Positions 34,705 to 53,462 of a stretch of DNA of 59,943 nucleotides are shown here, piece after piece. The stretch's first letter is position 1. The number at the start of each line of letters is the position of its first letter. Under the pieces are notes generated by a model, which was not told where the DNA came from, did not search any database, and was given only the letters and a program-made list of their open reading frames with translations. The stretch covers positions 248,001-307,943 of the IMG/VR virus record IMGVR_UViG_3300012277_000001, one strand, 5' to 3'. A program made the translations under genes and the position numbers. The stretch is from an uncultured virus (IMG/VR IMGVR_UViG_3300012277_000001). Taxonomy: Duplodnaviria > Heunggongvirae > Uroviricota > Caudoviricetes.

Positions 34705-34789
34705 TTGACACGCCAGTTCTGACGGTGGCATACTTGGCGGGTGGCAGCTGTTGCCCGCTGCTTTAACACTCACAAAATTTGGGAAGTTT
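34705..34789 (+). promoter_or_regulatory. Sigma70 promoter plus conserved leader, copy 1
   Basis: TTGACA-18-CATACT (TGn); hairpin; CACTCAC-N7-GGGAAGTTT. Confidence 0.8.
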
Positions 34790-34792
34790 TCC

Positions 34793-35155
34793 ATGAGCAA
34801 GCAACGCCCCAATCTGCTGCTGTGCTACGAACAGGTTCCGGATCGCACCGATTTCTATTTTGTGCCTTCCGATTCCGATCTTCCTGCACCGCTGTTCAAT
34901 GCGTTGATGCGCGTCAATAACCTGATCGTAAATTCCGTGGAATCTGCCCCGCAAAACGAAAAGCAGTGGCGCGACATTATGTACATGCAGGCGGCCACCA
35001 CGATCCGGCGTGACTACCTCGAAGAAGAAAACACGTACGGTCAAAATCGCTTTTTCAACCTGTTGACGCCTTACCTCCTTAATGAGGATGCGGGGCCTGC
35101 AATCCTGAACATTAGCGGTACGCTGACCCTGATCCGTACCGCATTCATCCAGTGA
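34793..35155 (+). CDS. Hypothetical early protein
   Basis: First gene after leader copy 1. Confidence 0.75.
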   Translation: MSKQRPNLLLCYEQVPDRTDFYFVPSDSDLPAPLFNALMRVNNLIVNSVESAPQNEKQWRDIMYMQAATTIRRDYLEEENTYGQNRFFNLLTPYLLNEDAGPAILNISGTLTLIRTAFIQ

Positions 35156-35256
35156 TGCAAAAACTGTAAACACTACAGAGCAGCAAACACTAGGCGGTGG
35201 TGCGCTGGCCGCTGCCGCCCGGTGAATCCTATTTGACCAGCAAAGGAAATACAGCA

Positions 35257-35730
35257 ATGACTAAATTTGATCGCGCAGACTTCACCAAAATCGACGCAGC
35301 TGTTGTTGATCTGGTGCGTGCCACTATTGCAGCCGGTAAAGATCGTGCAGTGTTCGAATGTTACGATCTGTTCAAGTCGCTGCACCTTTCTCGGATGACT
35401 CGCCACAAATTCCCTAGCGCACTGATGGACGTTCCGTCCGGTTCTGCCTTCTGTGCAGAATTTGGTGACTGGATTATTGCCGAGGTGGGCGACGACCAAT
35501 ACGTGTTGATCAAACTGGGCGACCGTGAAACACCGTGGTACGACGCGGACGAATTCTACAAGGCAAATTACCGCGCCGCGCAGAACCCACGCAATCCCCG
35601 CAGCCGTCGCCCGGATGATAAACAAGCACGTGGTGTTCTGAACATCACGTTGCCTGAAGGCATGAGCACCGACGACGCGCAAAAGATTCTGGCATTCGCC
35701 GCTAGCCTGCAAGGTGGCAAAGGTCAGTAA
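35257..35730 (+). CDS. Hypothetical protein
   Basis: SD AAGGA; ACTGTAAA at 35163. Confidence 0.75.
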   Translation: MTKFDRADFTKIDAAVVDLVRATIAAGKDRAVFECYDLFKSLHLSRMTRHKFPSALMDVPSGSAFCAEFGDWIIAEVGDDQYVLIKLGDRETPWYDADEFYKANYRAAQNPRNPRSRRPDDKQARGVLNITLPEGMSTDDAQKILAFAASLQGGKGQ

Positions 35731-35740
35731 TCAGTAACAG

Positions 35741-35767
35741 AAGCCCCGGCCTACGCTGGGGCTTTTT
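35741..35767 (+). terminator. Intrinsic terminator
   Basis: aagccccggc/gctggggc plus T5. Confidence 0.85.
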
Positions 35768-35793
35768 CGTATATGGATCTAGGAATTTTCGCA

Positions 35794-36309
35794 ATGAAGC
35801 TCGATGGCCGCAAACTTCAAAAATGGCGCATGCGCCTCGGTATTAAGCAGCTGGATTTGGCGCAGTATTTATGCCTTGACCAACGCGATTTGAACAAGAT
35901 AGAAAATCGTATGCCGGTGCCCCGTGCGTGGGAAGTGCGCGAACATATTCAAACGGCCCTGACCTATTTTCAGGATACGCCACTTTATGACCTGCATGTG
36001 GATTCGGCGCGCATGGCGAAGAACACCGAGGGCTTTTTGGCCACGCTCCAAGTGACCACTAAACACGACACGACAGCCGATTTCTACGTGGACAAGCGCG
36101 AACAGGCTCGGGCGTTTGTGCGCATTGTGGATGCGTTGCGTTTTGAGAAAGGCGGTTTGCCTCATGAATCGTTGCTGCTGATCAAATTCAACGAAGGTCG
36201 GCACCTGCGCATCATTGCTAACCCGCTGCGCGTTATGCAGCACGTCGAAAAGTTTTACGTGCAGGGTCGCCAAATCGTGAGCGTCGAAAGGCAAATTGAA
36301 GCTGCATGA
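35794..36309 (+). CDS. XRE-family HTH protein
   Basis: L..WR..LGI.Q..LA..L......L..IEN motif. Confidence 0.8.
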   Translation: MKLDGRKLQKWRMRLGIKQLDLAQYLCLDQRDLNKIENRMPVPRAWEVREHIQTALTYFQDTPLYDLHVDSARMAKNTEGFLATLQVTTKHDTTADFYVDKREQARAFVRIVDALRFEKGGLPHESLLLIKFNEGRHLRIIANPLRVMQHVEKFYVQGRQIVSVERQIEAA

Positions 36310-36800
36310 ATTTGTTCGTAACAGGTCCGTCGCCTACCTTGAGTGCACGCGCCCACTGTGACGTGCACCTTATTAAGATGACGACGGAAGCGGCACAGCT
36401 GCTATCGACCACGCAATTTGTTTTGACGGGTGAAGTGGTCGGCTACAAACCCACGCATCGAAATCACCCGTGTGCAATTTGGATCAGGGAATCAGCGGCT
36501 AACTATCGCTGGGCCTACCTGTTCTATTGCTGCCTGCTGACTGAATACGAATACCGATTCGGCAAGCAGCATAAAGCGGGCGCCTTCCGGCAAGCGTTCG
36601 GACGTGTGCCGCCGTTACCCGAAAACGGGCTGACCCCATTTGCGCAAGTGGTGGCCCCGGTGTTTCAGCAATGCAACACCTTCGCCGCGTACCGCCAGCA
36701 CATCCGGGCAAAGCTTCTAGAGTGGCCCCAACGCACACGCCCAGTGCGCACCACGTTCACCCGGCGCCAACGCCCGGCCTTCCTTTCCGACCTTCCCTAG
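36306..36800 (+). CDS. Pyrimidine-dimer DNA glycosylase (T4 endonuclease V-like family)
   Basis: MNLF..., D.H..KM..E.AQLLST, YKPTH.NHPC..W.RES and EY.YRFGK.H motifs. Confidence 0.85.
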   Translation: MNLFVTGPSPTLSARAHCDVHLIKMTTEAAQLLSTTQFVLTGEVVGYKPTHRNHPCAIWIRESAANYRWAYLFYCCLLTEYEYRFGKQHKAGAFRQAFGRVPPLPENGLTPFAQVVAPVFQQCNTFAAYRQHIRAKLLEWPQRTRPVRTTFTRRQRPAFLSDLP

Positions 36801-36819
36801 CCCGCCCTGTGCGGGCTTT
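36799..36819 (+). terminator. Hairpin/terminator, CMYGT-loop family
   Basis: agcccgc-cctgt-gcgggct-tt. Confidence 0.6.
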
Positions 36820-36887
36820 GTCGTTTCTGGCGCCCGCTCTGCCTATATGCGTACACGCGCACGCGTAGATAGCGAAACACGCCCCAG

Positions 36888-36975
36888 TTGACGTTTGGCG
36901 GTCGCTTTGTTACCTTTGGGGCAACTCGGGCACCGGCTGCCCGCAAAACAGACGCTCACGGTATTAGGGAAGTTT
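36888..36975 (+). promoter_or_regulatory. Sigma70 promoter plus conserved leader, copy 2
   Basis: TTGACG-17-TACCTT (TGn); cgggca/tgcccg hairpin; CGCTCAC-N7-GGGAAGTTT. Confidence 0.8.
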
Positions 36976-36979
36976 AGAC

Positions 36980-37204
36980 ATGGCCCGCTCGTTTCAGGTT
37001 ATGCAGCGCAAGACCAACAGCAAAGGCGTTACCTACTCGCTCCAAATCGAGAGCGGCGACTTTGTAAAGCAGGAAGCCCCATACGGCGTTTGGAAGCTGT
37101 GCATCAATTACAAGCATGGCAAGGACGTTAAGACTTGGCGCTACATCGAAACTGGGTTGACCCTCGAAGCCGCCCAAAAACTTTTTGATCGCCGTTCGAA
37201 ATAA
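36980..37204 (+). CDS. Hypothetical early protein
   Basis: First gene after leader copy 2. Confidence 0.75.
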   Translation: MARSFQVMQRKTNSKGVTYSLQIESGDFVKQEAPYGVWKLCINYKHGKDVKTWRYIETGLTLEAAQKLFDRRSK

Positions 37205-37216
37205 GGAGCATCACAA

Positions 37217-37417
37217 ATGAATCTTAAAGACCTGCTGTGGAACCTGTGGAAAATCGCTGAAAGCCCTGTCGTTGAAAAGGAGATTCGCGAATCCGTTAAA
37301 GAGGCGCATTGGACGCTTAGCGAAGTTCGCAACATGCTTGAACTTCCAGCCGATGCAGAACCCCGCGCCATCATCAGCGCTGTTTACGACCTGAAGCAAA
37401 AACGGGAGCAAAAATAA
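37217..37417 (+). CDS. Hypothetical protein
   Basis: SD AAGGAG. Confidence 0.75.
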   Translation: MNLKDLLWNLWKIAESPVVEKEIRESVKEAHWTLSEVRNMLELPADAEPRAIISAVYDLKQKREQK

Positions 37418-37830
37418 TGGACTACGAATTCCGCCAACATGAAATGGCTACCGATCCAGAAGACAAACGTTACTCGCAGTGGCTCGCAGCCGTAGGTAAA
37501 AAGCTGGGTCGCGACATTGGGATCGGTAGCGATCTGGAAAGTGATTTGTTCGATTACTACTCGGATGGTGCCGACCCCGAAGACGCGGTGGACGAAGTTC
37601 GCGCCATTGAAGAAATGCAGCGCAACGTTTCACCCGGCACCTGTCGCGATGTGCTCGACTACTTCAAAGACAAGCGGCTGCGCCTGAAGCGTGATGAAAA
37701 GATGAATCGCATGGTCTGGTGCCTTGACGGCACGACACACCAGCAAATCAGCGAAGCGCCGCACCTCGACCACTGGTCGCTGTTCAACTGGATTCAAAAG
37801 GGACGTGAATTTTTGGAGGCGTCGAAATGA
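37417..37830 (+). CDS. Hypothetical protein
   Basis: TAATG coupling, SD GGGAG. Confidence 0.75.
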   Translation: MDYEFRQHEMATDPEDKRYSQWLAAVGKKLGRDIGIGSDLESDLFDYYSDGADPEDAVDEVRAIEEMQRNVSPGTCRDVLDYFKDKRLRLKRDEKMNRMVWCLDGTTHQQISEAPHLDHWSLFNWIQKGREFLEASK

Positions 37831-38057
37831 TTTTGGATATCCTGCTGGGGGTCGTCGTGTTGTACCTGCTGATCGGTGCCGCAATGAGTTACATCGCGAT
37901 CAGTTTCATGCTGAAAACGAAAGACTCTGACTTTGCGTCCACGCGCCAGCGCTGGCAAGAATACAGCCTGTTGCAGAAAATCAAATCTGTGGTTCTCGGC
38001 ATGTTCATCTGGCTTCCCGCCGCGCTGGGCATAAAACGCAGCCACTTCTTCAAATGA
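37827..38057 (+). CDS. Small membrane protein
   Basis: SD GGAGG; two hydrophobic segments. Confidence 0.7.
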   Translation: MILDILLGVVVLYLLIGAAMSYIAISFMLKTKDSDFASTRQRWQEYSLLQKIKSVVLGMFIWLPAALGIKRSHFFK

Positions 38058-38066
38058 TGCACCCAC

Positions 38067-38088
38067 AACCCCGCCCCGTGCGGGGTTT
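38067..38088 (+). terminator. Hairpin/weak terminator, CMYGT-loop family
   Basis: aaccccgc-cccgt-gcggggtt-t. Confidence 0.55.
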
Positions 38089-38131
38089 GTCGGTAGTAAA
38101 CCAAACTGACCTTTATCAAGGAATCGCCAGC

Positions 38132-38866
38132 ATGACCATTCGCCTCACACGCATTCGTAAGTTGGGCCGTTATGAGCACAAAACCACCGGCCAGCAGGTA
38201 AACGTCCATAAAGGCCAGCGCCGTGACGGCGGGGTTGGTGATATTCACTTTTACACGCGTAGCGGCGAACGTGTGTTGCTTCCAGAAGCGGAATTTTATC
38301 GTGACTGGAAACGCGTCGAAGAAACCACAAAGGAAATCAAAGCCGTGACCAACCCAGCCAAGCCCGAAGACAAAGCACTGAACGAAAAAATCAAATTCCT
38401 GAATTGGACCATCGAACCAATGGGCGTGCGCATTGCGCCTATGGGGCGCGGCTGGGGCTTCGTGCATCAGGGCCTTTACCGTGGCCTGTCGCGCTTCCTG
38501 AGCAAACCCCTGATCGAAACGCCCGACCTCGATTTGATCGAATTCGCGAAGCTGGCAAAGGAAAGCATCCAGCAACAAATCGACGAAGACGCCGGGCCAC
38601 AATACAGCGTGGCGATTACCACGGTCGGTCAGAACTGGAACGATTCCGGAATGCGTCACCGTGTCGAATGCAGCGATGGTCGTGTTTCCGGCTGGGCACG
38701 TTACGAACAGGTGGCGTACCTTGATAATGTCGCCAGCCTGACCCCGTATTTTGTCGGCGGCGATAACGTGGTGGCTCGCAGTATTTCGGAAGCTCTGACG
38801 TTTATTGCAGTGGGGCCAAACGACAACCAAGACGACGAATCGGAAGTTGAGGAAGCTGGCGAATGA
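38132..38866 (+). CDS. Hypothetical protein
   Basis: SD AAGGA. Confidence 0.75.
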   Translation: MTIRLTRIRKLGRYEHKTTGQQVNVHKGQRRDGGVGDIHFYTRSGERVLLPEAEFYRDWKRVEETTKEIKAVTNPAKPEDKALNEKIKFLNWTIEPMGVRIAPMGRGWGFVHQGLYRGLSRFLSKPLIETPDLDLIEFAKLAKESIQQQIDEDAGPQYSVAITTVGQNWNDSGMRHRVECSDGRVSGWARYEQVAYLDNVASLTPYFVGGDNVVARSISEALTFIAVGPNDNQDDESEVEEAGE

Positions 38867-39276
38867 TTATTGGACGTAGCGCAAAAATTTCGGACGTAAA
38901 CAAACGCCTGAAAAAATCCGGACTGAAGATCGAACGCAGCAGCGATGGCAAGCAATGGGCGTGGTATGTGTTCAACGGAAAAGAGCGCGTGCGCAAAGTT
39001 TCCAGCCTGCTTGTGAATGATTTGTCGGTCGATCTGCTGGTCGATCTGGCAGAACGTTTCGCGGCCCCGGTTTACGTGCCGCCTGTGCATCGCGACGTAA
39101 GGGGCCTAGTGGTCGAGATTGGTGACGTGGTAGCCGTAGGGTACGACAACGGTTCTACGCTCGCCTACGGCACCGTTACGGCCCTTTCGGAATACGTCTG
39201 GTTGAGCAAGTCGGGCGAGACTGGTGGGACTCGACGCGTATCCAAGCGCGTTGCAATTTTGGAGAAAGTGAAATGA
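38863..39276 (+). CDS. Hypothetical protein (SH3/KOW-like C-terminus)
   Basis: D.RG..VEIGD.VA motif; ATGA overlap. Confidence 0.7.
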   Translation: MIIGRSAKISDVNKRLKKSGLKIERSSDGKQWAWYVFNGKERVRKVSSLLVNDLSVDLLVDLAERFAAPVYVPPVHRDVRGLVVEIGDVVAVGYDNGSTLAYGTVTALSEYVWLSKSGETGGTRRVSKRVAILEKVK

Positions 39277-39560
39277 GCAACCGTCCCAATAAGGTTCCGC
39301 ATTTTGAATGGCGCGGGCAGAAAATTGTGCCGGGCACCCGCATCAAAATTCGCAGCCGTCACGGCTCCACCGGCAACGGCACCGTGACCGCCGTCCTGTA
39401 CTGGTCGAACAGCCCGGATACAATCTGCGCGGAAATGGACCCTGACACGGAATATGCACCTGACTCTGCCATTCAAGCAGGTTGGGGCCGCGATCAAGAA
39501 CGCATCGCCGACATTGGTTTGTTCGGCGGCGAAATAAAAGAAATCCTGCAAAAGAACTGA
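39273..39560 (+). CDS. Hypothetical protein
   Basis: SD GGAG; ATGA overlap. Confidence 0.7.
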   Translation: MSNRPNKVPHFEWRGQKIVPGTRIKIRSRHGSTGNGTVTAVLYWSNSPDTICAEMDPDTEYAPDSAIQAGWGRDQERIADIGLFGGEIKEILQKN

Positions 39561-39569
39561 GGCCTCAAA

Positions 39570-39977
39570 ATGCAAACTCTGATTTCGCAATTGCCGCAAA
39601 TTCGGGCGCTGATTACTGGAAAACAAAACCGCGTCAAATCCCTGCTGGCCGATCCGGTTTTTGAACTGAAGGTTTTCCGTGACAAGGCACGCTCCTACGT
39701 GCGTCTTGAAATCAAACAGTTCTGCTTTGCGCGCCATGCGATCACGATCCGCGCCGATGGTTCTGGTTTCACCATCACGGCCCCCGGTGAAAGTGGCCCT
39801 GATCCAATCCACGGCCCTGACGATTTCCGCGTGCTGCATCGCGCTCTTTACGAACTAGGTTACACCGAAACGCCGCCAACCCCGGAACAACAACTGGCGA
39901 AGCTTTTCAGCACCGCCCGCAAGCAGAAACCAAACCGCAAAGGCGCCAGCCTGTCGCGCAAGAAACGCCGCGCCTGA
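39570..39977 (+). CDS. Hypothetical protein with basic tail
   Basis: SD GAGG. Confidence 0.7.
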   Translation: MQTLISQLPQIRALITGKQNRVKSLLADPVFELKVFRDKARSYVRLEIKQFCFARHAITIRADGSGFTITAPGESGPDPIHGPDDFRVLHRALYELGYTETPPTPEQQLAKLFSTARKQKPNRKGASLSRKKRRA

Positions 39978-39987
39978 TTCACCACTT

Positions 39988-40008
39988 ACCCCGCCACGTG
40001 CGGGGTTT
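39988..40008 (+). terminator. Hairpin/weak terminator, CMYGT-loop family
   Basis: accccgc-cacgt-gcggggt-tt. Confidence 0.55.
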
Positions 40009-40041
40009 GCCAATAACAGCCCTTTAGAAAGGAAATCGAAC

Positions 40042-40536
40042 ATGCTTTTTATTGCCGTGTTGGCCGAACAGCCGCCTAAGCCAGATGACGTGTGGGCCAT
40101 CCTCGCACAGAATCCAGAACTCGCCACGGTTGCCAAAGAATGGTTGACCTTGGATTGCAAAATGAATGTCTCGGTGCGTACGTCGGCCCCGTGTGAAAAA
40201 CCCGGCCTGCATCCCTACATGTTTTGCATGCGCGTCGTCAAAAACAATGAGGAACTGAATTATCCAGACCTCACGTGTGTCGTCATGCGAAACGCAACCA
40301 CGGAACGGCAGGAAGAGGCCCACACAAAACAGGTAATGAAATTCATGCAGCGCACGATAGAAACTGTGCTGTTCGATTTCTTGGGCGACCTCGAATTTGA
40401 TGTGATGGACCAATGGATCACAAGCACCGGCAACGGCGTTGTGGTGCTACGCAATATTGAACTGCATGAATTGGAAGACGCGTTCTTCCGCTCCAATCGC
40501 GCTAATTTTCAAATCGTCGAAGGATCAAAATCATGA
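40042..40536 (+). CDS. Hypothetical protein
   Basis: SD AAGGA. Confidence 0.7.
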   Translation: MLFIAVLAEQPPKPDDVWAILAQNPELATVAKEWLTLDCKMNVSVRTSAPCEKPGLHPYMFCMRVVKNNEELNYPDLTCVVMRNATTERQEEAHTKQVMKFMQRTIETVLFDFLGDLEFDVMDQWITSTGNGVVVLRNIELHELEDAFFRSNRANFQIVEGSKS

Positions 40537-41090: not shown

Positions 41091-41099
41091 GGAAGCATC

Positions 41100-41399: not shown

Positions 41400-41632
41400 G
41401 CACGAAACAGTGCAAGCCCGGCACCTGCATTGTGGGCGAAATCAAAAACGTTGCCATTAGCGAACGCGACTGGCTGAAGAAAGCCAAAGCCTTTCAAAAG
41501 GTGATTGCCGACTGGAACGAAAAGACGAAGCGGTTTGCTGTTCCGCATCCCGGCTTTTGTTACCGCTCTAACTACTGCGCTATGTGTGGTCGTTCGCTAG
41601 AAGACTTCCACAAAGAAAACACTTACCTCTAA
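41396..41632 (+). CDS. Small Cys-rich protein
   Basis: C...TC and YCAMCG motifs. Confidence 0.65.
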   Translation: MSTKQCKPGTCIVGEIKNVAISERDWLKKAKAFQKVIADWNEKTKRFAVPHPGFCYRSNYCAMCGRSLEDFHKENTYL

Positions 41633-43027: not shown

Positions 43028-43112
43028 TTGACACGGGAACCCGGTTTTGCGAATCTTTGGTTGCGGCCAAGTCGTGCCTGCAAAACACACACTCACGGAA
43101 TAAGGGAAGTTT
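43028..43112 (+). promoter_or_regulatory. Sigma70 promoter plus conserved leader, copy 3
   Basis: TTGACA-17-GAATCT (TGn); CACTCAC-N7-GGGAAGTTT. Confidence 0.75.
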
Positions 43113-43117
43113 GAACC

Positions 43118-43480
43118 ATGAAACGGAATCGCCGCATCGCTTTCACCGCCATCGAAGATTGGGCAGTACCAAAAACCGCTGGCACGCTTTCGTTCTTCGA
43201 AACGATCTGCCTGTCGTCTTTGGAAGGCAAAGAAATTCGCCTCGACGCCAAAACTCAACGCGCAGTGATCGGCTACCCTGTTTTTGGTAAGCAGCCTTTT
43301 ACTGTGAACGTGGATGGCACCGTTACCGTTCGTAAAAGCATTGCGTTCGGGCAAGATTCTGAAGAGCGTAAGTATTGCGCCCGCGAAGTGGATTACGCCC
43401 GCTTGAATAAATTGCGCATGGAACCCGGCACGCAGGGTGAAGGCATCTTCAGCAGCATTCCACAACCGGAGCACTACTAA
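43118..43480 (+). CDS. Hypothetical early protein
   Basis: First gene after leader copy 3. Confidence 0.75.
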   Translation: MKRNRRIAFTAIEDWAVPKTAGTLSFFETICLSSLEGKEIRLDAKTQRAVIGYPVFGKQPFTVNVDGTVTVRKSIAFGQDSEERKYCAREVDYARLNKLRMEPGTQGEGIFSSIPQPEHY

Positions 43481-43961: not shown

Positions 43962-44246
43962 ATGGCACGTAAAGCTGCCGATTCGGAAATCGTACTAGAG
44001 GCACCTGCGAACCTCGACCCGGCGCTGACACATTTCATTGTCTGCGATTTTGGGGATTGGGCTATCGGTGCCACGATTCGTGAAGCCCTGACTAACGTTC
44101 CTTTCGGCAAACGCACGGAACTGGAACCGACTATGCAGGTCTGGCACGTAACCCCCGGCACTTTCATAAGTGCATCCGGCGAGTTCTGGAATCACGATTG
44201 CCAGATTCGCCCGGTACTGAACGAAAGTCGCCGCAAAACCCGTTGA
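43962..44246 (+). CDS. Hypothetical protein
   Basis: SD GGAG. Confidence 0.7.
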   Translation: MARKAADSEIVLEAPANLDPALTHFIVCDFGDWAIGATIREALTNVPFGKRTELEPTMQVWHVTPGTFISASGEFWNHDCQIRPVLNESRRKTR

Positions 44247-44329
44247 CACCCGGCGCCTGTAATGGCATTCTGAAATCCAATCGGCAACCACGCCGACATA
44301 GTTTGACACTCACACTTTAAAGGAAGTTA
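44243..44329 (+). promoter_or_regulatory. Sigma70 promoter plus conserved leader, copy 4
   Basis: TTGACA-17-CATTCT (TGn); tcggc/gccga hairpin; CACTCAC-N7-AGGAAGTTA. Confidence 0.8.
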
Positions 44330-44333
44330 CCCC

Positions 44334-45809
44334 ATGACCAACGTTACCCACACCCAAACTGCTCTGCTGGTTGCTGCTGTTGAAACCCTGAACAAAGTTC
44401 TGTCGGATGCCAAAAAGGGCGGCGTTGCCGTTCCGGGCCTCGGCACCGAAGTTGGCGAAGGCATCAAACTGCGCGACCTGAAAAACTTCCTGAAGGAATT
44501 CAAGGCCAAGCAAGCCAGCGCCAAAGCACCAGCTGAAAAAGCTGCTGCACCGAAAACCGAAGCGCCTAAAGCAACCCCAGCCAAGGCCGAACCGGTGGAA
44601 CTGAAAAGCGCTGCCATCGTCGAAGCTGGCACCGTCAAAATCGGTCGCAACACCGAAACCGTTCTTCGCGTCCGCAACATCAGCGGCGTGCGCACTGCTG
44701 TAACTGACAAAGGCACCCGCATTGCCGCCGCTGATCTGGAGTTCAACAATCGCGGCGCCCTGCGCGTGAAGCTGGATTGCGAAGCCAAGTACAACGGCAA
44801 AGCCGCCCCGGCCAAAAAGCCAGCCGCCGAAGTGCAGGAAGACTTCGCAGAAGAGAAATCGAGCAAGCCTGCGAAGCCTGCAACCAAGCCAGCCGCCAAA
44901 GCTGACGACACCCGCAAGTTCCCGATCCGCGTCCTGAAAATCAAAAAGACGCCGATGATCGAAAGCATCGAGTATGACCGCAACACTAAAACCCTGTTCG
45001 TTACCCTGAAAGGCGGCGTGCAGTGGGCATACGAAGGCGTTGCACTGAGCGAAGCCCGCGATCTGGAACAAGCGGCGCAGCCGTGGAAGCATTACAGCGC
45101 GCATATCGCCAACGGTAAGAAAGGCGAGAAAGTGACCAAAGCACAGGCCACTACTGCCCCTGCACCAGCCCCGAAAGCTGGTAACAAAGCCCCGGCAAAA
45201 CCTGCTGCATCGGCGCCTATCAGCACTTCGCGCCTGCGTGCCGAAGGTTTTGTAGATGGCCGCACCAAAGAGCAAGTGCTGAACATTTCCAAAAACAAGG
45301 AAACCGGTGAGCGCTTCGTGAACACCGTTAGCGGCAAGAAAGTACCGCTGGCGTTCATCATCGAAGTGAAAAACAAGTTCCGCGTTTCCGATCTGGCAGG
45401 CATCGCAGACGCTATGGAAAAGGCCGGTGTGGCTTCGCGTGACGCCAAAGCAGGTTCCAAGGTTGCCGCCGAAAAGCCAGCCGAGAACACCCGCAAGGCG
45501 CAGGCAAACGGCAAGGCTGAAAAGCTGAATTTCGCAGCCGCTGAAGGCAAAGGTAGCACCAAAGCACGCGCCAAAGTGGTATCGGAAAAACCTACCCGCG
45601 CTTTCGTCAAAGAACAGGGGGTGCGCGTGGTGAAAGGCTCCAAAGAAAAGCTGGTCGATATCCTGCGTGTCGTTAAGCGCGGTGAAGTTCTGACCGCTGT
45701 ATCGGCTGCTGAAGGCCACGCGGGTATCCCGTTCGATCTGATCATGTCTTTTGATGGTCAACCAACCTTCACCGGCAAGCTGACCGCCGCCGAGTTCCAC
45801 GCCCTGTAA
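44334..45809 (+). CDS. Lys/Ala/Pro-rich histone-like protein with internal KTSC domain
   Basis: KPAAK-type linkers; I.SI.YD....TL.V..KGG..W.YEGV.......L..A.....Y...I matches KTSC; extreme codon bias. Confidence 0.75.
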   Translation: MTNVTHTQTALLVAAVETLNKVLSDAKKGGVAVPGLGTEVGEGIKLRDLKNFLKEFKAKQASAKAPAEKAAAPKTEAPKATPAKAEPVELKSAAIVEAGTVKIGRNTETVLRVRNISGVRTAVTDKGTRIAAADLEFNNRGALRVKLDCEAKYNGKAAPAKKPAAEVQEDFAEEKSSKPAKPATKPAAKADDTRKFPIRVLKIKKTPMIESIEYDRNTKTLFVTLKGGVQWAYEGVALSEARDLEQAAQPWKHYSAHIANGKKGEKVTKAQATTAPAPAPKAGNKAPAKPAASAPISTSRLRAEGFVDGRTKEQVLNISKNKETGERFVNTVSGKKVPLAFIIEVKNKFRVSDLAGIADAMEKAGVASRDAKAGSKVAAEKPAENTRKAQANGKAEKLNFAAAEGKGSTKARAKVVSEKPTRAFVKEQGVRVVKGSKEKLVDILRVVKRGEVLTAVSAAEGHAGIPFDLIMSFDGQPTFTGKLTAAEFHAL

Positions 45810-47001: not shown

Positions 47002-47003
47002 AA

Positions 47004-47588: not shown

Positions 47589-47606
47589 TCAGGCTAAGGG
47601 ATAATT

Positions 47607-48002
47607 ATGCTTTCGCTGATGTTGAATTTGTGTCTTGCGGGTCAACCGTGCAAGGAAGTGCGTGTCGCGGATTTCTTCACGGCGCAGGCTAGTTTCATGT
47701 GCGAGTTTAATCGCGAAGGTATGCAGGAATCGGCCCGCAAAGAAAACCGACCGGGCACCTTCAGCTGCAAAGCCGGGCAGGCACAGGAAAAGTTGAAACC
47801 GCTGGCCACCCTGAATTTCAGCGTGTGTCTCGCCAGTGGAAAACCCGGTGAAGCCTGCGAGGGTTTCGCGCTTGCTTATTTCTACGGCGCAGAATATGCG
47901 GAACCGGCATGTGCAAAGAATGCCGCGCTTATGCGACCTGCGTTTGAGCAAGCCGCGAATGAGTCTGGCGCCCGCGCTAAACTCGACTGCTCTTCTATCT
48001 AG
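47607..48002 (+). CDS. Cys-containing protein with internal duplication
   Basis: Two L...CLA..(PC/AC).....A.F......C..N...M units. Confidence 0.7.
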   Translation: MLSLMLNLCLAGQPCKEVRVADFFTAQASFMCEFNREGMQESARKENRPGTFSCKAGQAQEKLKPLATLNFSVCLASGKPGEACEGFALAYFYGAEYAEPACAKNAALMRPAFEQAANESGARAKLDCSSI

Positions 48003-48011
48003 GGGCATATC

Positions 48012-48290
48012 ATGGTTTTGAGTTCTGGACAGGTAGCAATACTATTTCTGGTGATGGGGTGCGCAGCCGCGATTCTGAGCATGCTACAAATTCACAGCCG
48101 GTTGCGTAACGCTCAAATCAGGGCGCAGTTGGCAGAATCGAAAGCAATGTTGTTGGAGGTCGAGAACCTGCAACTGCGCAATCGTAGGAAGTACGCCAAT
48201 CATGGGCAAGGTCCAACAAACGCAAAACCCGAACCGGAAGGTGCAACGTTCGAGCTTTGCAAGAAGACCGGCAGTTGGCGCGTGACATGA
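48012..48290 (+). CDS. Small membrane protein with coiled coil
   Basis: SD AGGGG; N-terminal TM segment. Confidence 0.65.
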   Translation: MVLSSGQVAILFLVMGCAAAILSMLQIHSRLRNAQIRAQLAESKAMLLEVENLQLRNRRKYANHGQGPTNAKPEPEGATFELCKKTGSWRVT

Positions 48291-48293
48291 ACG

Positions 48294-48326
48294 AAAGGCT
48301 CCCCAGTTTGCGCTGGTGGGGCCTTT
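48294..48326 (+). terminator. Probable terminator
   Basis: aaaggctcc.cag/ctg..ggggccttt stem. Confidence 0.6.
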
Positions 48327-48426
48327 CTGCGTTTCTGGCCCCGACCCACGGTTTCCCCCTGCCCTATACGCGGGCGGGCGCGTGTGCGCTTGTATAGGGG
48401 CCGTTGCGGGGCTTCAACATCGGCTG

Positions 48427-48514
48427 TTGACATTGGGTAGGCCGTTTGTTACCTTTGGGCCAAGTCGGGCATCGCCTGCCTGACAAACAGCCACTCACGC
48501 AATTAGGGAAGTTT
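48427..48514 (+). promoter_or_regulatory. Sigma70 promoter plus conserved leader, copy 5
   Basis: TTGACA-17-TACCTT (TGn); gtcgggca/tgcctgac hairpin; CACTCAC-N7-GGGAAGTTT. Confidence 0.85.
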
Positions 48515-48518
48515 AGAA

Positions 48519-48665
48519 ATGGCCTACGCAACGACAGTCAAACGCAAACCCGCTGTAGCCGCTAAATCGTGGGATTGGGATTCCGCGTTCCGCAAGGAAA
48601 GCGCTACCCGCGAAAAAGAAGTGACGGACGCCGCTCGCCGCTTCCGCAAATCCATCAGCCAATAA
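48519..48665 (+). CDS. 48-aa basic early peptide (below ORF-track cutoff)
   Basis: ATG at the same offset from the leader motif as in copy 2; MAYATTVKRKPAVAAKSWDWDSAFRKE... Confidence 0.75.
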   Translation: MAYATTVKRKPAVAAKSWDWDSAFRKESATREKEVTDAARRFRKSISQ

Positions 48666-48677
48666 GGAACCGCCATC

Positions 48678-48956
48678 ATGGGCCGCATTGCAAACCGCAT
48701 TAAACCGCTGGGTTACGAAATCCGTTTGAAATCGGGCGTCACTGTTTTGAGTCGGGGCGTCGGTGATTCCCAGCTGACCATGAAACAGCAGGCACACAAA
48801 GTCTGCACCAGCGAAACAAAAGGTGCTGTCGTGCTGCGCTACTTCAAACGCCCTGACGACACCATTCAGGAGGATCGGTTCTACGCCGTCGAATGGTCGG
48901 AAACGTTGGGTCACGCAAAAGAAGTAAATGCCACTGCGTTCACCTTCGCCCCGTAA
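48678..48956 (+). CDS. Hypothetical protein
   Basis: SD AAGGA. Confidence 0.75.
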   Translation: MGRIANRIKPLGYEIRLKSGVTVLSRGVGDSQLTMKQQAHKVCTSETKGAVVLRYFKRPDDTIQEDRFYAVEWSETLGHAKEVNATAFTFAP

Positions 48957-48965
48957 GGAGGCGCC

Positions 48966-49184
48966 ATGCGAACGGCGACCATCATCAAAGCGCTAGGCTC
49001 GGATAAGCTGGCACTGTACAAGGGGAGTGGTTACTTTTACTTCACGTACGACGACCCACAACAAAACATTTTCGAAACGCACAGCATCGACGCTGTGTGT
49101 CGCCTAACCGACCTGACCCTAGAACAGTGGATCAGCGAAGGCAAAACCCTACTTACCAAAATCGAAACGGAGTACGCACAATGA
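48966..49184 (+). CDS. Hypothetical protein
   Basis: SD AAGGAGG. Confidence 0.8.
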   Translation: MRTATIIKALGSDKLALYKGSGYFYFTYDDPQQNIFETHSIDAVCRLTDLTLEQWISEGKTLLTKIETEYAQ

Positions 49185-49309
49185 ACCACCTTCCAGTTAA
49201 CGACCTGCTGACCGTTGTAGTTTTCGCCGCTGTTTTTGCGGTGCCTGTATACATCGAATGGCTGCGCAAACAAAGCCAACCCAAACCACGCGGCGCCACT
49301 AAAATCTAA
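49181..49309 (+). CDS. Small membrane peptide (42 aa)
   Basis: ATGA overlap, SD GGAG; one TM segment and basic tail. Confidence 0.65.
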   Translation: MNHLPVNDLLTVVVFAAVFAVPVYIEWLRKQSQPKPRGATKI

Positions 49310-49315
49310 CAGTGA

Positions 49316-49353
49316 GTTTTTTCTGCGCATCTAGAACGGTGCGCATATGAAAC
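49316..49353 (+). promoter_or_regulatory. GCAU-Y-N6-R-GUGC hairpin, copy 2
   Basis: tgcgcatc-tagaac-ggtgcgca with lower gtttt/gaaac stem. Confidence 0.75.
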
Positions 49354-49402
49354 GAAGCTGCATCCATAACCGCAACACACGATCCTTATCAGGAGCCACA
49401 AA

Positions 49403-49678
49403 ATGTTCCTAATGCATAACATCATCAAATCGCTTTTCCCCCAAGACCACGAAGTCAAATTGGTCGGCAAGTTTTCCAACGCCTGTGCCTACACCGTGGA
49501 AACCAAATTGGGCGACATTGAAATGCTTGTCGCGACCTTCACCGTGGATGCTGGCGACGAATTCGCCCTGACTACGTTGAACGGCGAAGCGTGCCAGAAA
49601 GGAACAGGCTTTGCGCAATTCAAGAAGGCGCTGAAATCGCAAGACCTGCTGTGCAAATTCGAAACCATCGAGGAATAA
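49403..49678 (+). CDS. Hypothetical protein
   Basis: SD AGGAG. Confidence 0.75.
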   Translation: MFLMHNIIKSLFPQDHEVKLVGKFSNACAYTVETKLGDIEMLVATFTVDAGDEFALTTLNGEACQKGTGFAQFKKALKSQDLLCKFETIEE

Positions 49679-49679
49679 A

Positions 49680-50012
49680 ATGGAAGCCCACGCACGGAGT
49701 CACCCACGCGCCGCCCGCATTCGTACGCTGGTCGAGGCCATGGACGAACACATGGTGCGCTTGACCCGGTTGCAGTTCAGCTATCTAGAAAACTTTTACT
49801 GCACCGAAAAGGAAATCGCTACGGCGATTTTCCTGCTTTACGATGGTTCTGAAATCTTTGGCCATTTCAAGGCCCACCACAAACACGGCACCAGCGTAAT
49901 TGATTTCGAAATCGAGAGAAATAACGTGGTGCTCGCAAAAGGAAGTGGTATCACAGAGTGGTGCCAGTATATGAAACAACGGGGCGTGCTGCGCCCTTGG
50001 GTAAGGCTATAA
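49680..50012 (+). CDS. Hypothetical protein
   Basis: SD GAGGA. Confidence 0.7.
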   Translation: MEAHARSHPRAARIRTLVEAMDEHMVRLTRLQFSYLENFYCTEKEIATAIFLLYDGSEIFGHFKAHHKHGTSVIDFEIERNNVVLAKGSGITEWCQYMKQRGVLRPWVRL

Positions 50013-50021
50013 GGAGGCACT

Positions 50022-50351
50022 ATGGAAAAGGTTGTCTGCATTAAAACCAAACAGGCGGTGAACGCTAGCGATGTGCAGCAGAAATTCCCCGCCGTGTATC
50101 AAACGCTGACCGAATCCGAAGCCCGCTGGGGAACGCGCCCTGACGGTTTTCTGGTGGCGTTGTCTGCCGCTGCTTTTCGTGCCCGCGCCAAAGATATCAT
50201 GGATGCGTGCAGTTACGAAGAATACACCCGCGTCGATGGTGATCCTATACCCTGCTTCGTCACTGCGGAAACTTACAAGGCAATGGCCGAAGGTAATGGT
50301 TCCCTTTGGCTACACATTAGCCAAAATGACAAAAGCTGGATGGTGCAGTAA
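50022..50351 (+). CDS. Hypothetical protein
   Basis: SD AAGGAGG. Confidence 0.8.
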   Translation: MEKVVCIKTKQAVNASDVQQKFPAVYQTLTESEARWGTRPDGFLVALSAAAFRARAKDIMDACSYEEYTRVDGDPIPCFVTAETYKAMAEGNGSLWLHISQNDKSWMVQ

Positions 50352-50629
50352 TGGCCGCAATTAAAGTGGGCAGCTACACACGCACAGCCGCAACGACCCA
50401 CGTTGTAAACCGCTGGCACATTCCCAACGGTAGCGATTACCATATGGCCCGCGTCGTGAATATTTTCTTCGACGATGAACAGGCGGCAATCGAATACCAA
50501 AAAGAATACAGGATGCCACCAGAAATGGCAGACCTGATGACGGTGGCCAAATACGATGATCTGATGGCGGCATCCTCCAAATCCTATTCGCAATACAAAA
50601 AGCGATTCCAGCAAGACTTCGATAAATAA
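50351..50629 (+). CDS. Hypothetical protein
   Basis: TAATG coupling. Confidence 0.7.
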   Translation: MAAIKVGSYTRTAATTHVVNRWHIPNGSDYHMARVVNIFFDDEQAAIEYQKEYRMPPEMADLMTVAKYDDLMAASSKSYSQYKKRFQQDFDK

Positions 50630-50632
50630 TCG

Positions 50633-50662
50633 CCGGTACGCATTCCAACGAGTGCGTATCGG
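50633..50662 (+). promoter_or_regulatory. GCAU-Y-N6-R-GUGC hairpin, copy 3
   Basis: ccggtacgcattc-caac-gagtgcgtatcgg. Confidence 0.75.
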
Positions 50663-50686
50663 GATGAAACACCGGAGGATCAACAA

Positions 50687-50890
50687 ATGGCTGTAGGTTG
50701 GGCACGCGAAGGCGACACTGAAAAAGAAACCGAGAACGCGATAGCGATGGAAATTTACCGGGCGCGTAAATCGCTGGCAGGGCCACCCCGTACCGAGTGC
50801 ATCGACTGCGACGAACCAATAGGCGAAGCGCGGCTGCGTGTTCACCCAACGGCCCAGCGCTGCATACGTTGCCAAGCCGCTAGGGAGTGA
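50687..50890 (+). CDS. DksA/TraR-family C4 zinc finger (YbiI-like)
   Basis: MA.GWA N-terminus; C.DC.EPI.EAR....P....C..CQ motif. Confidence 0.9.
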   Translation: MAVGWAREGDTEKETENAIAMEIYRARKSLAGPPRTECIDCDEPIGEARLRVHPTAQRCIRCQAARE

Positions 50891-51111
50891 TGCGTATGTT
50901 TGATTTCAAGGTTCACCAAATAACGGGCAGCACCTACGCCAGTCTCGAAATGATCGACGGCGATTACACGCTGTCGTACGATATCAATTTCCAAGACGAC
51001 CCGGAGGCCCGCGATTTCCCCGAAGAAAACGTGTGGGCGCGGGCGTGCTGCTACAACCATACAGAAAATAAATACTGGCCGGATGACGGCGAAACCGAAA
51101 ATTCCTACTGA
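50887..51111 (+). CDS. Small acidic hypothetical protein
   Basis: Overlap with upstream stop; SD GGGAG. Confidence 0.65.
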   Translation: MMRMFDFKVHQITGSTYASLEMIDGDYTLSYDINFQDDPEARDFPEENVWARACCYNHTENKYWPDDGETENSY

Positions 51112-51121
51112 GGACCGCATC

Positions 51122-51502
51122 ATGGAAAAATATCTGACGGTGCAACATTTCTTCTCGCTGTTCCCGTACTGGTACATAGCAGCCTGCTTCGTTACGGGCT
51201 TTATCGCGTTCCCGGCCATGTTGGCTGTTCTGGCTAAGCCGCTGGCGCGTGGTGTGTCTCACGGCCTGTACGAAGTTGTGCTGTATTGGAAAGCGGGTGT
51301 ACCCGTGTGGGGCATCTTCAAACGTTTCCTGCGCGTGATCTATTTCGATTTGCCGCTGTGGGGCATCCTGAATAGCACTGTAACCAAAACCAGCATAGGC
51401 CCCGCTTGCTGGTACGGCATATTCGGTTGGTACTACGAAAAGAGTTTCACCCGCGCCAATTCCCTGACCACCATAAAGGCCAATAAGGAGGCTACCAAGT
51501 GA
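51122..51502 (+). CDS. Membrane protein
   Basis: SD GAGGA; hydrophobic. Confidence 0.7.
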   Translation: MEKYLTVQHFFSLFPYWYIAACFVTGFIAFPAMLAVLAKPLARGVSHGLYEVVLYWKAGVPVWGIFKRFLRVIYFDLPLWGILNSTVTKTSIGPACWYGIFGWYYEKSFTRANSLTTIKANKEATK

Positions 51503-51735
51503 AAGCACGTGAACCGATGTGGACTCTTTCCGATTTGGCTGAAAATCAAAAGGTGGCGATTTCCACGCTGCGCGACCGCCTGCGCAAAGCACCGTTGCCC
51601 GAACGTAAAGTTGAATCTGCGCTGCCTGCCGGTAAGTTCGGCGCCGTGGCTAAATCTGATCGCTACTGCCGTTCTATGTTGCTGGAGTGGTTCCGCCAGC
51701 AGGATCAGCAAACCCCTTTTAAACGGAAGGCCTGA
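51499..51735 (+). CDS. Small HTH (excisionase/AlpA-like) protein
   Basis: WTLSDLAE...V..STLR.R motif; SD AGGAGG with GTG start. Confidence 0.65.
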   Translation: MKAREPMWTLSDLAENQKVAISTLRDRLRKAPLPERKVESALPAGKFGAVAKSDRYCRSMLLEWFRQQDQQTPFKRKA

Positions 51736-51737
51736 GC

Positions 51738-51935
51738 ATGCGTCCAGCGAATTACGTGACTGACCCGGAATGGTTGGCCGGTTCTGACTACAAGGAATGT
51801 GTACGCTGGGCGATTTATTCCCACAAACATTTTCTCAATACTCGGCGCCATGGTTTTCACATGGCTGCCGCTGAATACAAAATCGACCGTGCGTCGTTCC
51901 TACAGCGTGCGCGTCAATTGAGGCCTAAGCAATGA
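51738..51935 (+). CDS. Hypothetical protein
   Basis: Operon context. Confidence 0.65.
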   Translation: MRPANYVTDPEWLAGSDYKECVRWAIYSHKHFLNTRRHGFHMAAAEYKIDRASFLQRARQLRPKQ

Positions 51936-52285
51936 TCGAACTATTGGACAACCCCGAATCTGTAAATGAGTTGGTGGACGACCAGCGTGTAATGGTCGGC
52001 GGTGTTGAATGTATTTTCAGCTGCGACAACAAACGCGTGCCGCAATCCACCTATGTTTATCTGACCACCGCAAGTTCCCGAGTTACTGCCTACCACGAAG
52101 AGTTAGAAAGACTCGAAAAGAAAATGCGCGACGAAGGGCAGGACGAATTCGTTATCAGCATGGCCGGTCACTGCATCTACGGAGATTACATTTATAATTT
52201 CCGCCAGACTGAAAACGGGGCGGCTATGATGAACCGCGAACAGATGATCGACATTCTTAAAAGCGGCCAGTACGTTCTGGCGTAA
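51932..52285 (+). CDS. Hypothetical protein
   Basis: ATGA overlap, SD GAGG. Confidence 0.7.
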   Translation: MIELLDNPESVNELVDDQRVMVGGVECIFSCDNKRVPQSTYVYLTTASSRVTAYHEELERLEKKMRDEGQDEFVISMAGHCIYGDYIYNFRQTENGAAMMNREQMIDILKSGQYVLA

Positions 52286-52294
52286 GGAGACACA

Positions 52295-52984
52295 ATGAAT
52301 ATTCCAACTTGGGCCACCGTAATTCTTTTGGCGTGCGCGCTGTTTGTTCTGTGGCGACACGTATTGCCAAAATTGCCCTACGCAGTTGCGGCCTTCGTCG
52401 GGTTTATGCTCCACCAGCAGGCAGCCAAGGCAATCGGCGTACATCGCGGGCCTATTTGGGCACACGCCCCGCATTTCATTTTGCGAGCGTATAAAACGCG
52501 CATGCAGTACCAAACAACCCTGCGCTATCCAGACCTCGATTACAATTACGCGAAGGGCATCGTCAACAACATTACCAAGGGCGAGCGTTGGTTAGATTCG
52601 ATGGCGCATTACCTTTCCATGGGCCGACACAACGCCACGGTTACGGTGATCAAGAATGGCCCCGATCTGAAAGTTAATGAAACGCTGGAATACGTGGTAG
52701 GTGTTTTGCCCGGTAACGAAGATTACGCACCGATGCGTGCGTTGATCTTGCACCCAATGTCGGACGCCGTTGAATCCATTATCGGCTTCGATCTGGCCAA
52801 ACTTCAAAAAGCTGTAAAACACTATATGCCTGACGTTGAGGCCATCATGGTTTACGAACCGCGCTCGCTGGTTGACGGCAAGTGGAACACCATCGCTTAC
52901 CTGTCGGCATTCGAAGGCAGTATGTGCGGCGAGTGGTACGACGTAGACCACCTGATGTTTAAAATCCCCAAGGACGAAAAATGA
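52295..52984 (+). CDS. Membrane-anchored hypothetical protein
   Basis: SD AAGGAG; N-terminal TM segment. Confidence 0.75.
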   Translation: MNIPTWATVILLACALFVLWRHVLPKLPYAVAAFVGFMLHQQAAKAIGVHRGPIWAHAPHFILRAYKTRMQYQTTLRYPDLDYNYAKGIVNNITKGERWLDSMAHYLSMGRHNATVTVIKNGPDLKVNETLEYVVGVLPGNEDYAPMRALILHPMSDAVESIIGFDLAKLQKAVKHYMPDVEAIMVYEPRSLVDGKWNTIAYLSAFEGSMCGEWYDVDHLMFKIPKDEK

Positions 52985-53346
52985 AGCGCTATCATATTTA
53001 TCTGCGTGGCACCAAACACATCGGTTCAGTTACGGCCCAACTCATGGCGCAATGCATCCGCGACTATGACCGGTTTGATTATCCGTGGATGGCAAACTTG
53101 CTTCGTGACCTGTGCGCAGATGCAAAAGAGCGGGCAAAGCCGGACTGTCCGCCAGTGCGCCCACTGGTTGTCAACGAAGTGCAGGCTTCCGCGTGGGCCA
53201 TCGCAGTTAACGCCACCAAAGCAACCCGCAAGGCGTTGGAATGCACGCTCGCTACGCAGCGCCACGGCATGTTCATTGGTTGGAGCGAAACACCCCTGCC
53301 CGATCCCGACACCGTGCGCTGTGCGCACTGCCAGCGCCCCTACTGA
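52981..53346 (+). CDS. Hypothetical protein with C-terminal CxxC
   Basis: ATGA overlap, SD AAGGA. Confidence 0.7.
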   Translation: MKRYHIYLRGTKHIGSVTAQLMAQCIRDYDRFDYPWMANLLRDLCADAKERAKPDCPPVRPLVVNEVQASAWAIAVNATKATRKALECTLATQRHGMFIGWSETPLPDPDTVRCAHCQRPY

Positions 53347-53360
53347 GGCTTACAGGTCGA

Positions 53361-53389
53361 TTGACCGTCTGTCGGCCTTTGGGTACAAT
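53361..53389 (+). promoter_or_regulatory. Sigma70 promoter, copy 6
   Basis: TTGACC-17-TACAAT. Confidence 0.8.
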
Positions 53390-53394
53390 GAAAC

Positions 53395-53462
53395 CTCTTC
53401 GCCCAACTGTGGGCCGAGAACATACAGTCACACGATAAGGGAAGTTTAGGACTTCCCTTTTT
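53395..53462 (+). ncRNA. Candidate ~70-nt small RNA or attenuated leader carrying the TCAC-N7-GGGAAGTTT motif
   Basis: 5' hairpin gccca/tgggc; motif 53425-53447; aagggaagt pairs with acttccctt (53451-53459), then T-run; no ATG at the usual offset. Confidence 0.55.

Follow-up and report, generated by a model that had tools for sequence, protein, structure and literature searches.

Why should six promoters that head unrelated genes share one leader sequence, held at one spacing to the nucleotide? The question is raised by a stretch of 59,943 nucleotides (the window; G+C 52%) that forms the final 60 kb, positions 248,001 to 307,943, of the 307,943-bp virus record IMGVR_UViG_3300012277_000001. 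A sequence-only reading of the window had described six sigma70 promoters followed by a common cassette, a 5' hairpin and then TCAC-N7-RGGAAGTT overlying the ribosome-binding site, and had proposed that it is a dedicated early regulon element. We find that the cassette is the standard front end of predicted host-sigma70-read early units in Lu11-like Pseudomonas jumbo phages, with about nine per genome. Tentatively, and with somewhat less than even confidence, we favour the view that it contains a leader-RNA site through which a phage-made factor would control whole early units.

A bipartite motif specific to Lu11-like phages

The closest named relative of the source phage is Pseudomonas phage HRDY3 (313 kb, ∼78% identity where the two can be aligned). 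Lu11, a phage of Pseudomonas putida with a genome of 280,538 bp, is more distant; the 491-residue protein encoded behind the fourth window cassette has a Lu11 orthologue that is 41% identical. TCAC-N7-RGGAAGTT was taken as the strict motif and the reversed pattern as its control. All six copies that the sequence-only reading had placed in the window were recovered, each on the + strand (TCAC at 34770, 36956, 43093, 44310, 48495 and 53428), where 0.01 are expected by chance and none of 100 shuffled sequences reached six. The genome-wide and cross-phage search that had been proposed as a check gave nine strict copies in the source phage (eight forward, one reverse), nine in HRDY3 and eight in Lu11, with no match to the reversed pattern in any of the three genomes. 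Relaxing the spacer to 5–9 nt added no copy anywhere in the source genome, so that the 7-nt spacing is exact, as had been claimed.

A covariance model trained on 48 distinct leaders and run on these three genomes and on that of phage PaBG returned nine strong matches (E < 1e-8) in each of the source phage, HRDY3 and Lu11, with four, three and one weak extras, respectively, and no cassette in PaBG, a phage that passages of PMC7412058 place in the wider phage group named there. A pattern scan of IMG/VR gave 42 loci; on inspection 37 carry the full cassette and five are chance matches, and the copy numbers of four of these relatives count only matches that also contain the hairpin arm, which the scan pattern demanded. 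The cassette-bearing loci lie mostly on about six further contigs, each of ∼300 kb. Five Pseudomonas genomes (∼33 Mb in total) contain five matches to the motif and two to the control, which is chance level, and mimicry of a host regulon was rejected on these counts. Because the phages carry the copies while PaBG and the Pseudomonas genomes are without them, the element is taken to be specific to Lu11-like phages and not derived from the host.

The motif had not been recognised by the sequence-only reading, and it matches nothing that we could find described. Neither the window nor three further loci contain an Rfam family at the gathering threshold, and at E ≤ 5 there were just three chance-level matches, none inside any cassette. 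A full-text literature search found no account of the motif, nor of the promoters of Lu11 or HRDY3.

Anatomy of the cassette

Twenty-six strict copies from the three complete genomes, picked by the motif alone, were used to define the cassette. All 26 have a TTGAC −35 box, separated from the −10 by 17 nt in 21 copies and by 18 nt in five, and 22 of them have a TG before the −10. TCAC begins 35–40 nt beyond the −10 in every copy but one, where the gap is 49 nt. An ATG begins 3–6 nt after GTT in 21 of the 26; of the other five, two have it 2 nt away, one has it 25 nt away and two have none nearby. Read from its promoter, the cassette consists of TTGAC, 17–18 nt, the −10, a GC hairpin, a 12-nt G-poor linker ending ACA(C/G), UCAC, 7 nt, RGGAAGUU(U) and usually, 3–6 nt on, AUG. 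A scan with a generic sigma70 consensus calls only two of the six window cassettes (eight calls in the region against 10.6 expected, hence no excess), so that the case for promoters is made by the invariant TTGAC and by the geometry common to the 26 copies; the earlier description of sigma70 promoters stands on that footing and finds no help in the generic consensus.

Letters beyond the search pattern were counted in the 25 copies with full flanks. T is present at +8 in 25 of 25, C at −3 in 24 and T at +19 in 23, and the 3' hairpin arm TGCC occupies −18 to −15 in 21–23. Since these flanking letters are near-invariant, the distances from the hairpin to TCAC and from TCAC to RGGAAG are fixed; the distance from promoter to hairpin, the size of the loop and the distance from motif to ATG vary.

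Predicted folds contain the hairpin in most leaders (mean z −1.6; z < −2 in 23 of 48), with the linker and N7 mostly unpaired. The hairpin is followed by a CA-rich linker and no T run, its loop sequences differ widely among leaders, and its position would allow it to shield the RNA's 5' end. In the gapless alignment of the 48 sequences, whose hairpin statistics are biased because the IMG/VR rows were chosen for TGCC, 73.6% of the cells in the arm columns pair, as against 29–46% when the partner columns are slid; variation in the arms is mostly wobble-compatible (37 G-U cells).

Conservation beyond a ribosome-binding site

RGGAAGU and the two letters that precede it pair at eight of nine positions with what we take to be the 3' tail of 16S rRNA, the ninth being an A-C mismatch, and on this pairing RGGAAGU is an extended Shine–Dalgarno (SD) site of the first gene, at normal spacing from its ATG. 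The predicted pairing is moderate, at −5.4 to −6.8 kcal/mol where the genome median is −5.2, and a single A-to-G change would bring it to −13 kcal/mol; the A concerned is invariant. Because the pairing is ordinary and the stronger single-letter variant is never used, the invariance of the motif does not reflect selection for SD strength. Ordinary SD sites of the phage are AGGA at 82, GAGG at 59, GGAG at 45 and AGGAAG at eight of 375 crude gene starts, a number that is approximate because the greedy caller of open reading frames (ORFs) takes spurious antisense frames. The nine copies in the source genome all stand behind TTGAC promoters, and none lies ahead of an internal gene.

All nine source cassettes are syntenic with HRDY3 copies, which argues against frequent shuffling. 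Across the nine orthologous pairs 99 of 99 motif letters are identical, compared with 75–84% in the flanks. The motif is, on these comparisons, clade-wide and under selection.

Copies that serve no start codon

Cassette 6 of the window (53361–53466, + strand; −35 TTGACC, 17-nt spacer, TACAAT with the −10 ending at 53389) has no start codon. Its 5' hairpin is followed by single-stranded TCAC (53428) and then by a terminator-like stem (53437–53459), a 10-bp hairpin of which the motif itself forms the 5' arm, and by a T run. The predicted RNA of ∼70 nt has two hairpins flanking the single-stranded UCAC (−24.7 kcal/mol, z −4.5), and by this fold the cassette would either produce that short RNA or attenuate transcription into the gene at 53490. 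Cassette 6 is a promoter-plus-terminator unit, which the sequence-only reading had not recognised. Base-pairing of such an RNA in trans was considered and rejected, its anti-motif arm being locked within its own 10-bp stem. The same build with a different loop is present in HRDY3 (locus L146) and in one IMG/VR lineage (loci L172 and L182), while another IMG/VR lineage keeps a hairpin of the cassette-6 type and lacks the T run. A downstream arm complementary to GGGAAG is found in cassette 6, at L146 and L195 of HRDY3, and at the IMG/VR loci L171, L172 and L182.

Other copies are detached from a start codon in different ways. At genome position 169423 (−) the motif is followed by ∼170 nt of extra leader and then, at 169243, by a degenerate copy, TCAC-N7-CGCAAGTTT, just ahead of a normal GGAG of its own and an ATG. 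The extra leader at this locus (L003, genome 169220–169497, −) is conserved, has long predicted stems and no Rfam match, and precedes the gene for a 649-residue protein whose basic domains are repeated and whose tail is long and rich in glutamate. Lu11 has one variant, TCAC-N7-CGTAAGTTT, that lies 20 nt ahead of a start codon and another, TCAC-N7-GGTAAGTTT, with no start codon nearby. At genome 151091 the variant reads TTAC...GGGAAGTTT, and two TTAC copies, at 151091 (−) and 151175 (+), stand back to back between divergent genes; in HRDY3 one copy of the corresponding pair is followed by an arm that pairs with GGGAAG. Degenerate back-to-back copies 65–68 bp apart are seen here in three phages (151091–151193, loci L196/L197; L198 in Lu11), and the pair stands at the start of a gene cluster extending from a GNAT gene to one for a DnaB-like helicase.

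The changes in these variants are confined to R, to the last G of GGG and to the C of TCAC; T0, A2, C3, G12 and AAGTT are kept. To judge from these letters, the SD function is removed or masked where it is unused and the remainder of the motif is retained. We conclude from these comparisons that the motif does more than load ribosomes: it occurs only beside promoters, GGG alone is lost or masked where there is no ATG, and its register to the hairpin is fixed. The sequence-only reading had held that the conservation exceeds the needs of an SD site, and the invariance of the mismatched A, the placement at promoters only and the retention of the motif without an ATG bear this out.

Two further sites resemble the cassette. 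HRDY3 has an isolated TTAC-N7-GGGAAGTT at 95033 (−; L194), with no recognisable promoter and with a terminator-like hairpin after it. At genome 115126 (+) a TTGACA-17-TACCTT promoter without a hairpin is followed by a leader composed of CCACTCAC, two bases, AGGAAC and then ATG; by its sequence this leader is a shortened relative of the cassette.

The six cassettes of the window

The −35 boxes lie where they had been reported (34705, 36888, 43028, 44243, 48427 and 53361, all on the + strand). The −35/−10 spacer, described earlier as 17–18 nt, measures 18 nt in cassette 1 and 17 nt in the other five, and TG precedes the −10 in five of the six, in agreement with the five extended −10 elements first noted, with GG in its place in copy 6. 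An ATG had been put 3–5 nt beyond the motif in five copies; five copies do have one, at a distance of 4–6 nt after GTT, and copy 6 has none.

Cassette 1 (34705–34795) has TTGACA at 34705, an 18-nt spacer and TG plus CATACT, its −10 ending at 34734; a hairpin at about 34736–34759 is followed by TCAC at 34770–34773, GGGAAGTT at 34781–34788 and the ATG of a 120-codon ORF at 34793. The remaining four that precede a start codon all have 17-nt spacers. In cassette 2 (36888–36982) TTGACG and TG plus TACCTT (−10 end 36916) precede the hairpin CGGGCA/TGCCCG, TCAC at 36956, GGGAAGTT at 36967–36974 and an ATG at 36980 (74-codon ORF). Cassette 3 (43028–43120), with TTGACA and TG plus GAATCT, has TCAC at 43093, GGGAAGTT at 43104–43111 and an ATG at 43118 (120-codon ORF). 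Cassette 4 (44243–44336) combines TTGACA, TG plus CATTCT and the hairpin CGGC/GCCG with TCAC at 44310 and the form AGGAAGTT at 44321–44328; its ATG at 44334 opens the gene for the 491-residue protein, which has a KTSC domain and is orthologous to the product of the Lu11 gene behind the Lu11 cassette at 4447–4465. Cassette 5 (48427–48521) has TTGACA, TG plus TACCTT, the hairpin CGGGCA/TGCCTG, TCAC at 48495, GGGAAGTT at 48506–48513 and an ATG at 48519 (48-codon ORF).

The hairpin had been described as present in most copies and weak in the third, and the predicted folds agree, that of copy 3 reaching −7.4 kcal/mol (z −0.5). The statement that the cassettes head unrelated genes is likewise confirmed: the five first genes of the window are mutually dissimilar (BLASTP E ≥ 0.7), and first genes mostly have no Pfam match. 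A terminator-like hairpin at 36799–36817 (+), just 5' of cassette 2, ends unit 1 and is the sole clear terminator that closes a window unit ahead of the next cassette; the + strand just 5' of cassettes 3, 4 and 5 has no terminator-like site.

Transcription genes and a second repeated element

Proteins of the early region mostly lack Pfam matches, the exceptions being a LytTR protein, a DksA/TraR zinc-finger protein, a GNAT acetyltransferase and a winged-helix protein. The gene for the LytTR DNA-binding-domain protein (128 residues; Pfam E 5.8e-11) lies at 34313–34699 (+), directly 5' of cassette 1. It adjoins a cassette also in HRDY3 (261046–261393) and in Lu11 (11738–12082, minus strand), and within the phage collection it occurs only in these three phages. 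The DksA/TraR-type protein (67 residues, 50687–50887) is encoded within early unit 5; by analogy with its family, which binds the secondary channel of RNA polymerase, it may retune host transcription.

The sequence ACTGTAAA, contained in (A)AAACTGTAAAT, is present 52 times in the 308-kb genome, on the strand that follows gene direction and frequently 20–60 nt 5' of start codons (in the window at 13325, 15648, 17007, 21460, 23212, 24476, 29090, 32753, 35163, 46198 and 56927, with 41 elsewhere in the genome). Its reverse complement holds an ACAGTT box, and boxes of the ACAGTT type are bound by LytTR regulators. Its distribution suggests that ACTGTAAA is probably the phage's own middle or late promoter class. 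A sigma70-family factor of 337 residues, in which only region 2 was detected, is encoded at genome 155076–156086 (−; locus L335:11076–12086), and the gene for a protein with a Tad2-like anti-Thoeris domain stands beside it (genome 156361–156897, −). Because of the 52 copies of ACTGTAAA and the phage-encoded sigma70-family factor, the nine or so cassettes plausibly represent a host-sigma70 early class and ACTGTAAA a later, phage-directed class.

A proposed leader-RNA site and its rivals

The comparisons support a specific recognition of TCAC and AAGTT that operates on whole transcription units. In this respect the proposal of a dedicated early regulon element stands, as an element of early (host-sigma70) units; the three mechanisms offered with it, an operator in DNA, a nut/put-like antitermination signal and a translational operator, are not distinguished from one another by that result. 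We favour RNA as the recognised molecule because the register of the motif is fixed to the transcribed hairpin and not to the promoter, because its orientation to transcription is uniform in all copies behind TTGAC promoters, and because complementary arms have evolved against it.

On the leader-RNA reading, UCAC and G..AAGUU would be recognised on the nascent leader by a phage-made factor, in a register anchored by the hairpin. The bound factor would cover the promoter-proximal ribosome site and so break the coupling of translation to transcription where the unit begins, and this uncoupling would silence the whole early unit through polarity and decay. A recent study (PMC12445685) reports that in Escherichia coli ribosome coupling near the promoter is required for productive early transcription. 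At cassette 6 binding of the factor would compete with the motif-armed terminator hairpin; where the hairpin was prevented, polymerase would read into the next block of genes. That all this amounts to an undescribed post-transcriptional switch, in which the factor reads UCAC...AAGUU on all early transcripts, silences eight units and opens the ninth, from which no more than a ∼70-nt RNA would otherwise come, is a fuller proposal that we entertain as doubtful.

Several points weigh against a leader-RNA site. The data fit recognition of DNA as well as RNA, and the fixed spacings could in part be inherited from one ancestral cassette. The starts and ends of transcription are predicted ones, and none of the Lu11 copies found has the terminator form of cassette 6. 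The hairpin shows only weak covariation, with changes on both sides in two of six pairs and no measure above shuffled alignments, and RNAalifold gave no consensus structure on the gapless alignment; what is kept in the arms is mostly their sequence, a pattern to be expected of a DNA palindrome just as well. As to the factor, the genome has no homologue of CsrA and no match to RegA (PF01818) at E ≤ 1, and a Pfam scan of 218 reading frames, about half of 400 crude ORFs (batch sizes stated as 53 + 115 + 25), found no recognisable RNA-binding protein.

A DNA operator, for which the sequence-only reading had allowed, we think unlikely. A phage protein would recognise, in duplex DNA at about +35 to +55, the letters TCAC and AAGTT(T), block the elongating host polymerase and shut off all early units. 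The LytTR protein is the candidate reader if the motif acts as DNA, its gene being directly 5' of a cassette in all three named phages, and conservation of the hairpin arms in sequence more than by covariation, the DNA-site-like arrangement of the copies at 151091/151175 in their divergent region and the absence of the motif from host genomes are all in keeping with such an operator. LytTR boxes are centred on GTT, to which AAGTT is similar; LytTR proteins usually bind direct repeats, however, whereas the motif is asymmetric and has none. The ACAGTT in the reverse complement of ACTGTAAA suits a LytTR protein at least equally well. An operator in duplex DNA also leaves unexplained why the orientation is uniform behind every TTGAC promoter and why the distance from the promoter varies (35–40 nt, once 49) while that from the RNA hairpin is fixed, and the complementary arms directed against the motif at several loci are a feature of RNA.

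Rather less probable, in our view, is a constitutive cassette that has no dedicated factor, in which an early promoter, a stabilising 5' hairpin, an unstructured CA- or AU-rich stretch for ribosome loading and a tuned SD site would be kept together by overlapping constraints and common descent. The eight-of-nine pairing with 16S rRNA, the normal spacing to ATG and the mostly unpaired linker and N7 suit this view. The leaders of E. coli ompA and T7 gene 10 have the same order of 5' hairpin, unstructured stretch and ribosome site as the cassette; we know of no invariant bipartite sequence common to a set of operons among such stabiliser leaders. A close architectural counterpart is provided by the PeSLs (promoter-early stem-loops) of T4-type phages, which parts of the account by Arbiol et al. 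(2010, PMC2839356) describe as a sigma70-like early promoter, a GC-rich stem-loop, an SD site and a start codon ahead of unrelated ORFans, about 50 per genome, in hyperplastic regions, with varied stem-loop positions, terminator action and gene shuffling. Both systems consist of repeated intergenic units in which a strong sigma70-like promoter, a stem-loop, an SD site and an ATG precede unrelated ORFans. The cassettes differ from PeSLs, as those parts present them, in being about nine per genome at syntenic sites rather than about 50, in having a hairpin after the −10 without a T run where PeSL stem-loops terminate and are variously placed, and in the fixed-register TCAC-N7-RGGAAGTT, which does not figure in those parts. 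On this comparison the cassette is a PeSL-like early cassette to which an unexplained recognition element has been added; that promoter, stem-loop and ribosome site form a cassette of a known kind had escaped the sequence-only reading. A purely constitutive design does not account for the invariance of UCAC, of the mismatched A and of AAGUU where the SD G's are lost in the absence of an ATG, nor for the survival of the motif where it serves no start codon, as in cassette 6 and at the loci near 151 kb and 169 kb.

Processive antitermination of the nut/put type, in which the hairpin and the single-stranded motif would alter host polymerase, unaided or together with a phage or Nus factor, and let it pass terminators within the multi-gene early units, we consider improbable. 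The nut sites of lambda and the put RNA of HK022 act close to the promoter, and each early operon has a single such RNA element, made up of a hairpin and a conserved stretch near it. The cassette likewise supplies one element per unit just beyond the promoter, with its hairpin and single-stranded box at a fixed mutual distance, and the units are of 1–6 kb with many small genes. A subset of linkers resembles the core of the boxA consensus by eye, but linkers vary and do not match boxA in general, the hairpin lacks the conserved loop of nut, and the motif overlaps the ribosome site. The put RNA has two stem-loops in ∼70 nt, unlike the single hairpin of the cassette leader, and Rfam gave no match at either threshold used. 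In most copies the motif is the ribosome site, so that ribosome loading would compete with a complex on RNA polymerase, and terminator-like sites inside the units are few. The nut/put option of the sequence-only reading thus draws no support from the sequence.

A translational operator of the T4 RegA kind, the third of the mechanisms first offered, is a poor fit. T4 RegA and RegB are phage factors that act on the ribosome-binding regions of early messages and end early expression, and their targets are many individual genes, not just the promoter-proximal one. The Lu11-like motif is different from theirs, and because it occurs once per promoter and a RegA homologue is absent, a gene-level operator of this type fits badly. 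CsrA/RsmA sites are A(N)GGA, preferably presented by the loop of a hairpin. In 18 of 25 copies an ANGGA lies across the ribosome site, and a second GGA falls in a predicted hairpin loop in one orthologue group only; such a site would leave UCAC unexplained, and the CGYAAGTTT variants keep the rest of the motif without GGA.

Other candidates were rejected. By eye, an internal or antisense promoter in the leader (an ECF-like −35, sigma54 or a second sigma70), half-sites for IHF or CRP, and a bipartite site like those of type I restriction each lack a conserved partner element at the right spacing. The AG/UUU junction fits the loose consensus for RNase E, which is too degenerate to explain the invariance.

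Mere recent duplication or gene conversion of a promoter cassette, named by the sequence-only reading as the finding that would undo its case, is scarcely credible: cassettes within a genome are ∼56–65% identical overall, and repeated promoter cassettes of T4-type phages are known to recombine, as parts of PMC2839356 relate, but the identity of all motif letters between the source phage and HRDY3 amid diverged flanks, together with persistence in Lu11, contradicts and excludes it, as the cassettes hold syntenic sites in three phages with downstream proteins 41–63% identical, head unrelated first genes, and have diverged in flanks, loops, linker and N7 with 11 motif letters unchanged.

Implications for early control in jumbo phages

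Very little is known of how expression is timed in jumbo phages that depend on host polymerase. In one clade of them the cassette marks every predicted host-sigma70 early unit, and an element of ∼20 nt offers a compact handle on the control of early genes, with Lu11 as a cultured member of the clade that grows on Pseudomonas putida. If there is no reader, the cassette would still be a compact, strong and ready-made module for expression in Pseudomonas. Should there be a dedicated reader, phages would have a new kind of regulator, acting either in early shut-off or in delayed-early read-through.

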